IMG/VR virus record: IMGVR_UViG_3300045988_025751
Location: 1-22,605 of that record
DNA length: 22,605 bases
Reading direction: 5' to 3' (one strand)
Source of the DNA: a virus
Lineage: Duplodnaviria; Heunggongvirae; Uroviricota; Caudoviricetes
In this document: piece after piece, positions 6,001 to 9,000 of the stretch
Position numbering within the stretch: position 1 is the first letter of the stretch
How the letters are laid out: every line of letters begins with the position of its first letter
Position numbers: made by a program

Positions 6001-9000
6001 TTCATTCAGTTCCATGCTCATAACCCTAATGCGCTATATGTTGATATAACAATAGTATAGCACATAAAGAAAGTAAGGTATTCAATATATGACTCTCAAA
6101 GAAGGGCAGTTAGTTACTTACGCTATCGATGAAATCATCGAAACCGTCCAGAACCTGACGCCAATGGCGTCCAAAGTGACAAAATACACCCCTCCGGCAG
6201 AATCCATGCAGCGTTCAAGCAACACCGTGTGGATGCCTGTTGAGCAGGAAGCGCCAACTCAGACTGGCTGGGATTTAACTGGCAAAGCTACTGGGATTCT
6301 GGAACTCTCCGTGAAATGCAACATGGGTGATCCGGATAACGATTTCTTCGAGCTTCGTGCAGATGACCTGCGTGATGAGCGTTCTTACCGTCGCCGCATC
6401 CAGGCATCCGCCAAAAAACTGGCGAATAACATTGAGTCAGCAATTGCCAAACAGGCAACCGAAATGGGCTCACTTGTTGTTCACGATACCCGCGCAATTG
6501 GTCCATCTACTGGCCTGTCTGGCTGGGATTTTGTGTCTGATGCAGAGCGCCTGATGTTCTCCCGTGAGCTAAACCGCGATATGGGCATCAGTTACTTCCT
6601 GAACCCTGACGATTACCGCAAAGCAGGCCGCAACCTGGTAGATGGAGACATCTTTGGGCGCGTTCCTGAAGAAGCGTATCGCAACGGTACTATTCAGCGT
6701 CAGATTGCTGGCTTTGATGAAATTCTTCGCTCACCGAAACTTCCGGCAGTTACCAAGTCAACCGCTACTGGTGTAACTGTTTCTGGTGAGCAGAAGTTTA
6801 AGCCGCAGGCATACACCCTTGATACCGATGGTAACAAAGAGAACGTCGACAACCGTGTTGCAACGGTGACCGTATCCTCCACCACCGGATTTAAGCGCGG
6901 CGACAAAATCAGTTTCACTGGTGTGAAATTCCTGTCTCAGATGGCGAAGAACGTGCTGACTGATGATGCGACTTTCTCAATCACCCGTGTGATCGATGGT
7001 ACTCACATCGAAATCACGCCGAAGCCGATTGCACTGGATGACGCGTCACTGACAAAAGAAGAGAAGGCTTACGCTAACGTAAACACCTCTCTTGCTGATA
7101 CCACTCCGGTAAACGTTCTGAACGTGGCAACAACCACCGCTAACGTGTTCTGGGCTGATGACTCAATCCGTCTGCTGTCTCAGCCGATCCCGGTAACCCA
7201 TGAACTGTTTGCTGGTATGAAAACGTCTTCCTTCAGCATTCCTGGTATTGGTGTTAACGGCATCTTCGCAACGCAGGGTGATATCAATACTCTGTCTGGT
7301 AAGTGCCGTATTGCTGTGTGGTATTCAGCATGTGCTGTACGACCAGAGGCAATTGGTGTTGGTCTGCCTAACCAGACCGCGTGATAACCAGAGGGAGCTT
7401 CGGCTCCCTTTTCTATTGGAGATACCAATGAGCGTAATGATTTTTCAGGCTGGCGGAGATACCAAAATCTGGGGACGCAAGCTGAAAACGAAAACCGTTG
7501 ATCCTGATGATGTAGCTGTGCACTTAGCAAATGGCTGGTATAAGCACCCTGACGATGTTCCTGATGATCCTCTTGTTGGTGATCAAATTGGGAGTGTTGG
7601 CGGAGGTGAAACTTCCCCAGTTGATATGGGCGAAGTGTCCGACGGTTATCACACTTTTAACGAGCTTTACGCTCACCGAGTGCGACTCTTCTCATCGCTG
7701 ATGCATGCTTACGCTGAGCTTTCGTGGTGGTCTCGCAAACACAGTGACGGTGAAGAGTGGGATGGCTGGATCATTGCTGGTATCACCACTCCAGAAGGCG
7801 AAATCACTTATCACCTACCTGTTGAAGAAATCGAGTTCCTTCCTGAAGGTACTGAGCTTGAGTTCGGGAAAGAGTGGGATGGTCATGAAGCAAATGATGT
7901 TCTTGGACGACTCCTGAGTTTGCGTCCGGCTATTGCAGAGCCGGAGTCAGAGCCAGAAGAAAAACAGCGTAAAAAGCCTGGTCGAAAACCTAAGGCGGCA
8001 GCAGATGAACCTGACAACGAAGGGTGATTTAGTTCTTGCGGCATTACGTAAGCTCGGTGTGGCATCAAATGCCACGTTAACCGATGTCGAACCGCAGTCT
8101 ATGGAAGACGGCGTCAACGACCTTGAAATGATGATGGCTGAATGGCTTGGCGGTGATGTGTCACCTGGTATCAACGTTGGCTACATTTTCGCTGATGCAG
8201 ATGTCGCTCCAGATCCGGGCGATGAGCACGGTTTATCAAATAACGCTATCAATGCTGTCATTTTCAACCTTGCCTGCCGCATTGCACCGGATTATGCGCT
8301 GGAAGCGCCTGCAAAACTTATAACCACTGCCAGATACGGGAAAGAGCGACTCGTCAAACTGTCTGCAATGGACAGAGCAAAAGCCGCTAAATGTAAGTCC
8401 GGTTATCCAAACCGTATGCCTGTTGGTAGCGGTAACCAGTTGGCGAAGTGGAACGGTTGGAATTACTTCCACCGAAAGGAACCTTGCGATAACGGGAGCG
8501 AATAATGCCGATTCAGCAACTTCCGCTCATGAAAGGTGTCGGCAAAGACTTCCGAAATGCCGACTATATCGACTATCTACCAGTGAATATGTTGGCTACA
8601 CCCAAAGAAATCCTTAACAGCAGCGGATATCTTCGCTCATTCCCGGGCATTGCCAAACGTTCTGATGTGAACGGTATATCTCGAGGCGTCGAGTACAACA
8701 TGGCGCAGAGTGCTGTTTATCGCGTGTGTGGCGGCAAGCTCTACAAAGGCGAAAGCGAAGTCGGTGACGTCGCCGGAAGTGGTCGTGTATCAATGGCGCA
8801 TGGTCGGACATCACAGGCGGTAGGCGTTAACGGGAAACTGGTCGAGTATCGTTATGATGGCACGGTTAAAACCGTCTCAAACTGGCCTACAGACAGCGGA
8901 TTCACTCAGTATGAGTTAGGTTCTGTTCGTGACATTACGCGCTTACGTGGGCGTTATGCGTGGTCAAAAGACGGCTCTGATTCATGGTTTATCACTGACC

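Follow-up and report, generated by a model that had tools for sequence, protein, structure and literature searches.

P22-like phages carry a small accessory gene between the major capsid (coat) gene and gene 4, and the gene, the variability of its slot and the stem-loop in front of it are already known from the genome papers on epsilon34 (2008) and phage L (2020/21) and from the annotations of P22, L and Sf6. In P22 the gene is orf69, which encodes 69 amino acids (aa) at 6135-6344 of the P22 record; it has been described as a homologue of epsilon34 gene 6 that has lost an internal segment, and reported to be non-essential (PMC2629481, citing Eppler 1991). The phage L gene, which bears the record label "ST64T orf186, named as orf186 ... 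in Gilcrease et al. 2005", has been given as "detailed function unknown" (PMC8022706). Here we examine an open reading frame (ORF) of 199 aa at 7428-8027, plus strand, of IMG/VR virus record IMGVR_UViG_3300045988_025751, a member of the Caudoviricetes; positions 1 to 22,605 of the record were analysed (hereafter the window) and represent the late region of a P22-like (Lederbergvirus) prophage. We identify this ORF with near certainty as the Escherichia coli-prophage long allele of the accessory gene. It differs from the short alleles in carrying a WDGH domain, for which we put forward, tentatively, a role in counter-defence.

A conserved gene with a variable central slot

The ORF lies on the late-operon strand between the coat gene (6089-7384, plus strand; PF11651, P22_CoatProtein, E 3.6e-163) and gene 4, the head-tail adaptor gene (8005-8505, plus strand; PF11650, E 5e-58). 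A Shine-Dalgarno sequence, GGAG at 7418-7421 on the same strand, can be read 6 nucleotides (nt) upstream of the ATG at 7428, and the 3' end of the ORF overlaps the gene 4 start, an ATG at 8005, by 23 nt (8005-8027); the corresponding overlap is 17 nt in P22 and in L, 20 nt in CUS-3 and 26 nt in Sf6. The product has a mass of 22.2 kDa and is strongly acidic (pI 4.65; 40 aspartate and glutamate residues against 20 lysine and arginine residues), with a basic patch of pI 11.2 at aa 178-190 (7959-7997) near its C-terminus. In these respects the preliminary description of this DNA, which had reported a good ribosome-binding site, the 23-nt overlap and an acidic protein with a basic tail, was accurate.

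Along its whole length the product matches phrog_3769 (E 1e-100), and database searches yield 1,371 proteins similar to it at E <= 1e-3. Full-length relatives with 50-99% identity are found in Escherichia, Pantoea, Cronobacter, Serratia, Erwinia, Xenorhabdus, Hafnia and Klebsiella, and the long allele is also present in Salmonella phages. Copies with 97-99.5% identity occur in 42 E. coli genomes, and copies this close are seen only in E. coli prophages. An alignment of 48 sequences contains 41 invariant positions. In the comparison with phage L orf186 the proportion of synonymous differences (pS) is 0.88-0.95 and thus saturated, while that of non-synonymous differences (pN) is 0.17 in the WDGH domain and 0.30 in the N-terminal module (N-module). 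The preliminary description had allowed that its proposal would fall if the frame were not conserved among relatives; with pN far below pS and so many invariant positions, the frame is conserved. Judged by sequence comparison, the ORF is a real gene and not a chance reading frame, and the low pN against saturated pS argues that the WDGH domain is under strong purifying selection.

The start at 7428 is backed both by the ribosome-binding site and by homology to the short alleles. Database annotation of the gene varies: PGAP calls a 99.5%-identical copy in E. coli VTB97584v (NZ_CP178707, 9242-9643 of the examined segment) from an internal start, giving a protein of 133 aa from which the N-module is lost, and other genomes annotate a near-identical copy as a hypothetical protein. 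Near-identical E. coli copies also carry the RefSeq name "WDGH domain-containing protein".

Searches of phage records with tblastn connect the product to the earlier names of the gene, with 62% identity over aa 1-167 to Orf186 of L and ST64T, gene 6 of epsilon34 and g341c, orf54 of ST104 and a hypothetical protein of BTP1. These relatives share with the window the order of coat, hairpin, ORF and gene 4, the architecture of three modules and the overlap with gene 4, and within the WDGH domain the identity is 77%. The window protein differs from the L/epsilon34 group in a diverged N-module and linker, the linker being longer and rich in glycine and serine, and in a PE-rich spacer. The BTP1 antisense RNA STnc6030 was suspected to map to this slot and was rejected as a candidate, its actual position being at the injection and tailspike genes; nor is the slot used in the HK620/P22 biosensor paper.

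To define the modules, the window protein was aligned with L orf186, P22 orf69, the 88-aa ORF of IME10, the 62-aa ORF of CUS-3 and Sf6 gene 6. The N-module comprises aa 1-48 (7428-7571, plus strand), of which about 45 aa are conserved. It matches phrog_1175 (E 2.4e-14 on aa 1-44), is modelled by AlphaFold2 as a beta-hairpin and helix with a predicted local distance difference test score (pLDDT) of 82-90, and contains the motif MxxMxYKxG...GWxxHP; it is conserved as protein across genera and is common to the short alleles. The WDGH domain (Pfam PF25311) follows at aa 68-165 (7629-7922, plus strand) and is missing from the short alleles. The remainder (7923-8024, plus strand) consists of a PE-rich linker, the basic patch with the motif (K/R)KxGRKPKA, and an acidic end; this tail is retained in P22 orf69, L orf186 and IME10. 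The basic C-terminal tail and the gene 4 overlap that characterize the family are thus both present in the window. In the AlphaFold2 model the linker and tail are predicted to be disordered and the WDGH domain to form a compact alpha+beta fold; modelled alone, this domain reaches a pLDDT of 92.8 and a predicted template modelling score (pTM) of 0.81.

The ORFs of P22 (orf69), CUS-3 and IME10 belong to phrog_1175 and, in hidden Markov model (HMM) comparison, cross-hit the first 45-51 positions of phrog_3769. They share with the window the slot, the upstream hairpin, the gene 4 overlap and the N-module, and the basic tail is recognizable in P22 and IME10. The preliminary description gave P22 no gene at this position; this was mistaken, as orf69 has both the N-module and the basic tail. 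The same description correctly placed an uncharacterised gene here in Sf6. That gene, gene 6 (phrog_3251, 61 aa), gives no HMM cross-hit at E <= 0.01, so we consider it a positional equivalent only. None of the ORFs from P22, CUS-3, IME10 and Sf6 contains WDGH, and alleles of the IME10 type carry an (EP)n repeat in the central slot. In the light of these alignments the protein is best described as a conserved N-module and a conserved basic tail with a cargo slot between them, which is empty or filled with (EP)n in most relatives and holds WDGH here.

The variability that had been proposed for this slot is confirmed by the comparison of the coat-gene 4 interval across P22-like phages and prophages, which differ in having long or short alleles and in their (EP)n repeats. 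The long allele is present in 42 of the 217 complete E. coli genomes with this coat/gp4 type; the others have short alleles, with interval lengths of 727-864 bp that differ mostly in 6-nt steps (727, 733, ... 841) and proteins of 72-84 aa that differ in steps of 2 aa. Short alleles of this kind contain a GAGCCA hexanucleotide (Glu-Pro) repeat, the copy number of which differs between prophages that are otherwise about 98% identical. In IME10 the repeat lies at 2690-2745 of the examined segment. In the record of this phage (NC_019501) the 88-aa short allele (2545-2811, same coordinates) is unannotated, and gene 4 (2684-3289) is begun upstream, inside the repeat, giving a protein of 201 aa against the usual 166; this gene 4 start is probably a misannotation. 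The synteny of portal, scaffold, coat, WDGH gene, gp4 and gp10 extends to Xenorhabdus, and in Pantoea the coat gene is found upstream of the ORF and gp10 downstream.

The hairpin after the coat gene

A stem-loop, "t coat", lies between the coat gene and the ORF at 7390-7417 on the plus strand and is recognized by RNAfold, by conservation and by its annotation in P22, L and Sf6. Its core stem (7393-7398 with 7403-7408; GGGAGC/GCUCCC) is closed by a UUCG loop (7399-7402) and can be extended to 9 bp (7390-7411). Directly 3' of the stem is a U-rich tract, UUUUCUAUU at 7409-7417, which is interrupted after four U. RNAfold of 7380-7430 gives -18.3 kcal/mol (z = -3.2), a stability equalled in one of 200 shuffles. 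A hairpin with a U-tract immediately after coat had been noted in the preliminary description, and its GC-rich stem of 6-9 bp, UUCG loop and adjoining U-tract are those of an intrinsic terminator. It was not listed by an automatic terminator scan; we think that maximal extension of the stem, which consumes three U of the tract, accounts for this miss. A scan with Rfam found no RNA family in the coat-gene 4 interval, and scanning of both strands of 7385-8027 found no sigma-70-like promoter.

The stem was compared across seven lineages (the window, IME10, P22, L, CUS-3, Sf6 and Pantoea). All 42 of the 42 stem cells are paired, against only 40-69% in slid controls, and two of the six stem pairs show compensatory changes: G-C, A-U and U-A at the base of the stem, and A-U and G-C at the fourth pair. 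This pattern of covariation indicates that the structure is real and under selection.

The hairpin is annotated in the record of P22, in that of phage L as "terminator", and in that of Sf6 as "t coat ... likely to be a transcription terminator". The phage L paper states of the stem-loop that its "roles are not known" and suggests either partial termination or the stopping of transcripts begun without gp23/gp24 antitermination (PMC8022706). The published remarks on termination at this hairpin are in silico only, and the idea in the preliminary description that it sets the stoichiometry between coat and the downstream genes is the same as the speculation already in print for phage L. In lambda and P22, and by analogy here, transcription of the late genes requires Q/gp23 antitermination; the modified polymerase should therefore largely read through the hairpin. 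We propose that the hairpin may act as a leaky intrinsic terminator that filters out transcripts made by unmodified polymerase, as a stabilizer of the 3' end of the coat-proximal mRNA, or as both. Because read-through by the modified polymerase is expected, we prefer these roles to that of a strong setter of stoichiometry.

Similar elements are found outside the P22-like phages. A 31-nt stretch covering the hairpin and U-tract (7392-7422) has an exact match in the unrelated Acinetobacter phage vB_AbaM_3098 (PV081573, 39330-39360). In lambda, the interval 7161-7201 between gene E (major capsid) and FI contains a GGCCC-UUCG-GGGCC hairpin with a U-rich tract behind it, and GGAGG and the start of FI come next. 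Head modules that are unrelated to each other thus have in common a UUCG stem-loop after the capsid gene.

The WDGH domain and its possible role in counter-defence

The WDGH assignment has a score of 134.8 bits against a cutoff of 27, with all 97 positions of the model (1-97) aligned to aa 68-165. The signature residues SDGYHTF, ELYxHR, YH and WDGH are all present in the window protein, and each is invariant or at least 90% conserved in a sample of 100 diverse members of the family. Within that sample D72, G73, L80, Y81, R84, L87, G118, Y128, D151 and R161 are invariant, and at least 90% of members retain H75, H83, H105, D107, H129, W150 and H153. Polar and aromatic positions are conserved at an unusually high density, which would suit a pocket or an active site. 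The net charge of the domain is negative in every case, lying between -1 and -15 with a mean of -7.7. The family comprises 3,622 clusters at 50% identity (E <= 1e-3) from many bacterial phyla, and includes proteins from phages of Listeria, Bacillus, Streptococcus, Lactococcus, Klebsiella, Erwinia and actinobacteria. WDGH is one of the larger phage domain families for which we found neither a known function nor a solved structure nor any literature. In the structural check suggested in the preliminary description, AlphaFold2 gave a fold for the domain, and the searches for related structures yielded no function: the search of PDB sequences with the single protein and with a profile returned nothing below E 0.6, and Foldseek against BFVD returned only other uncharacterised WDGH proteins. 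Literature searches on WDGH, PF25311 or P22 orf69 gave nothing relevant.

WDGH proteins of other phages (Listeria P100-like, Bacillus Tsamsa-like, pneumococcal, Klebsiella, Erwinia and Lactococcus) resemble the domain in the window in being acidic alpha+beta domains of about 100 aa with the motifs SDGYHTFxELYxHR, YH and WDGH. They differ in that they mostly stand alone or have other N-terminal extensions, and in that their genes lie mostly in early or nin-like regions and not in the slot between coat and adaptor. In SopranoGao the WDGH gene stands in an array of small early/accessory genes, and in Bacillus phage Nate it adjoins a NADAR gene. Pneumococcal phages, where it lies between the portal and minor head protein genes, are an exception to this accessory placement. 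The 137 immediate neighbours in 77 prophage loci include DUF4406 (4), Lar (3), HTH regulators, methyltransferases and RuvC; this neighbourhood is a nin-like accessory region.

The fusion partners of the domain offer the most informative clue to its role. Among the 100 diverse WDGH proteins, the other Pfam domains are PF21825 (Sequestin; seven members), Lar restriction alleviation (three), Tad2-like (two), the Acb2/Tad1 hairpin (one), RNase_T exonuclease (one) and YodL (one), with zinc ribbons also found. Each of Tad2, Sequestin, Acb2/Tad1 and Lar is thus found joined to WDGH in a single protein chain. A 265-aa protein of a Serratia prophage contig (P0102 in our set; 5001-5798 of the examined segment) combines Tad2-like, WDGH and Sequestin domains; its gene is flanked by the lysis cassette and the terminase in a prophage whose portal is of P22 type, and may occupy a slot of the late operon that encodes a polyvalent anti-defence protein. 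Two further members are built from Lar, WDGH and a zinc ribbon (P0238) and from WDGH and RNase_T (P0231). PF21825, a 3'cADPR sponge, was itself found through its fusion to Tad2 and Acb4 and then validated (PMC12265669). As the same fusion logic applies to WDGH, we consider it a candidate counter-defence domain. That the WDGH cargo serves counter-defence is, from its domain fusions and gene neighbourhoods, a serious possibility that nevertheless falls well short of an even chance. The broader proposal, that WDGH is an unrecognised and widespread counter-defence family, binding or acting as an enzyme on an immune signal or restriction component, which P22-like phages have grafted into a conserved late protein and so make alongside the structural proteins that trigger signalling immunity, is slightly more doubtful still.

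Taken together, our preferred explanation combines the identity of the gene, the three-part protein with WDGH as its cargo, the roles proposed above for the hairpin, and counter-defence; as a whole we judge it slightly likelier to fail than to stand. Under this explanation the ORF would be expressed in the late operon from its own ribosome-binding site, and the overlap of its last codons with the gene 4 start would allow its translation to be coupled to that of gene 4. WDGH would be an acidic, soluble, non-structural domain with a putative pocket of invariant His, Asp, Arg, Tyr and Trp residues; it may bind or process some component of host immunity, perhaps a signalling nucleotide. Since signalling immunity can be triggered by structural proteins (PMC13251945), the late co-expression of a WDGH cargo with them is plausible: the cargo would be made while these possible triggers accumulate.

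Several observations weigh against a counter-defence role. The window protein itself contains neither a sponge domain nor Lar and matches nothing in NCBIfam or PADLOC, and WDGH has no detectable similarity in sequence or fold to Tad1, Tad2, Acb2, Sequestin or Lar; by these measures it is not a member of the validated sponge families. The pockets of known sponges, which are homo-oligomers, carry positive charge; WDGH, by contrast, is always net acidic. No partner domain could be recognised in about 85% of the WDGH proteins examined, and evidence from fusion amounts to guilt by association; the literature searches on WDGH gave no experimental datum. Anti-restriction functions such as Lar are not usually expressed late. 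Finally, the commonest alleles of the gene are without WDGH altogether, and the core function of the gene must therefore lie in the N-module and tail.

In other explanations the domain is secondary. The protein may be an accessory of head assembly or DNA packaging and a positional analogue of lambda FI, that is, an acidic non-structural protein which aids terminase-procapsid or portal-gp4 steps, with WDGH as incidental cargo. At the lambda E-FI junction, as here, the capsid gene stop is followed by a GC-rich UUCG hairpin, a U-rich tract, a ribosome-binding site, a small acidic ORF, which in lambda encodes the non-virion protein FI, and a head-completion gene. An ORF with the N-module and basic tail occupies this position in every P22-like relative checked except Sf6, and the laboratory non-essentiality of the P22 homologue would suit an auxiliary role in assembly. 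The proteins, however, are not homologous (hhalign probability 0.2%); a homologue of FI was accordingly rejected, only the positional analogy, striking as it is, remains, and we regard this explanation as unlikely. A translational relay, in which the ORF would carry ribosomes past the hairpin to the gene 4 start and WDGH would be a tolerated mobile insertion of little benefit, could explain why an overlap of 17-26 nt with gene 4 is kept in all relatives examined, why the homologue in P22 is non-essential, and why the interior is so plastic, with deletions, growth of (EP)n in 6-nt steps, and gain and loss of a domain. The conservation of the N-module at the protein level across genera speaks against a mere relay, as do the strong purifying selection and many invariant residues of WDGH and the persistence of the long allele in Escherichia, Salmonella, Pantoea, Cronobacter, Serratia, Erwinia, Xenorhabdus, Hafnia and Klebsiella, and we consider it quite improbable.

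We give a similarly low probability to a virion-associated protein, either one that decorates the capsid or an internal one, present in low copy number, that is packaged by means of its basic tail and injected into the next host. The gene does lie inside the head gene cluster, and its tail is basic, proline-rich and AT-hook-like. According to the text of the phage L paper, liquid chromatography-tandem mass spectrometry (LC-MS/MS) of the virion found nine proteins beyond the thirteen named, of which the main text identifies three, leaving six; yet Dec is the only extra virion protein named in that text. The virion gel of epsilon34, which has the long allele, is described as almost the same as that of P22, which has the short allele; the two differ in gp13, in the tailspike and in one band near 15 kDa (PMC2629481). 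The product is, moreover, strongly acidic overall, and WDGH genes are found elsewhere among early or accessory genes. The gel comparison and the non-structural contexts of WDGH in most other phages disfavour a decoration protein, one of the functions suggested in the preliminary description, or a major virion component; a low-copy packaged or injected protein, for which the six further phage L proteins leave room, is more conceivable.

As a sequence feature the ORF is ordinary, and the lead that remains is the fusion-based hypothesis of counter-defence by WDGH. Because this domain is repeatedly fused to members of four validated anti-defence families, it is a specific candidate that could be added to anti-defence screens at little cost, and the presence of long and short alleles in E. 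coli prophages that are otherwise about 98% identical provides a natural isogenic comparison.

Neighbouring features of the late region

The genes of the window are arranged in the order small and large terminase, portal, scaffold, coat, the ORF described here, gene 4, gp10, gp26, ejection proteins, immI region, tailspike and integrase. The coat gene ends in a TGA at 7382-7384, which is followed by an in-frame TAA. An HNH endonuclease gene of 173 aa (5500-6021, minus strand; PF13392, E 4e-22; phrog_99) with a GC content of 39% lies antisense to the late operon; the interval that holds it (5500-6088) is inserted precisely where the scaffold stop would meet the coat start. This gene is missing in IME10 and E. 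coli VTB97584v, where scaffold adjoins coat directly, and is present in 20 of the 217 E. coli genomes with this prophage type as well as in phages Dewey and Louie; its features suggest a homing endonuclease. Farther downstream, Rfam identifies the sar RNA (RF00262, 95.6 bits) at 16660-16727 on the minus strand, a marker of the P22-type immI region.

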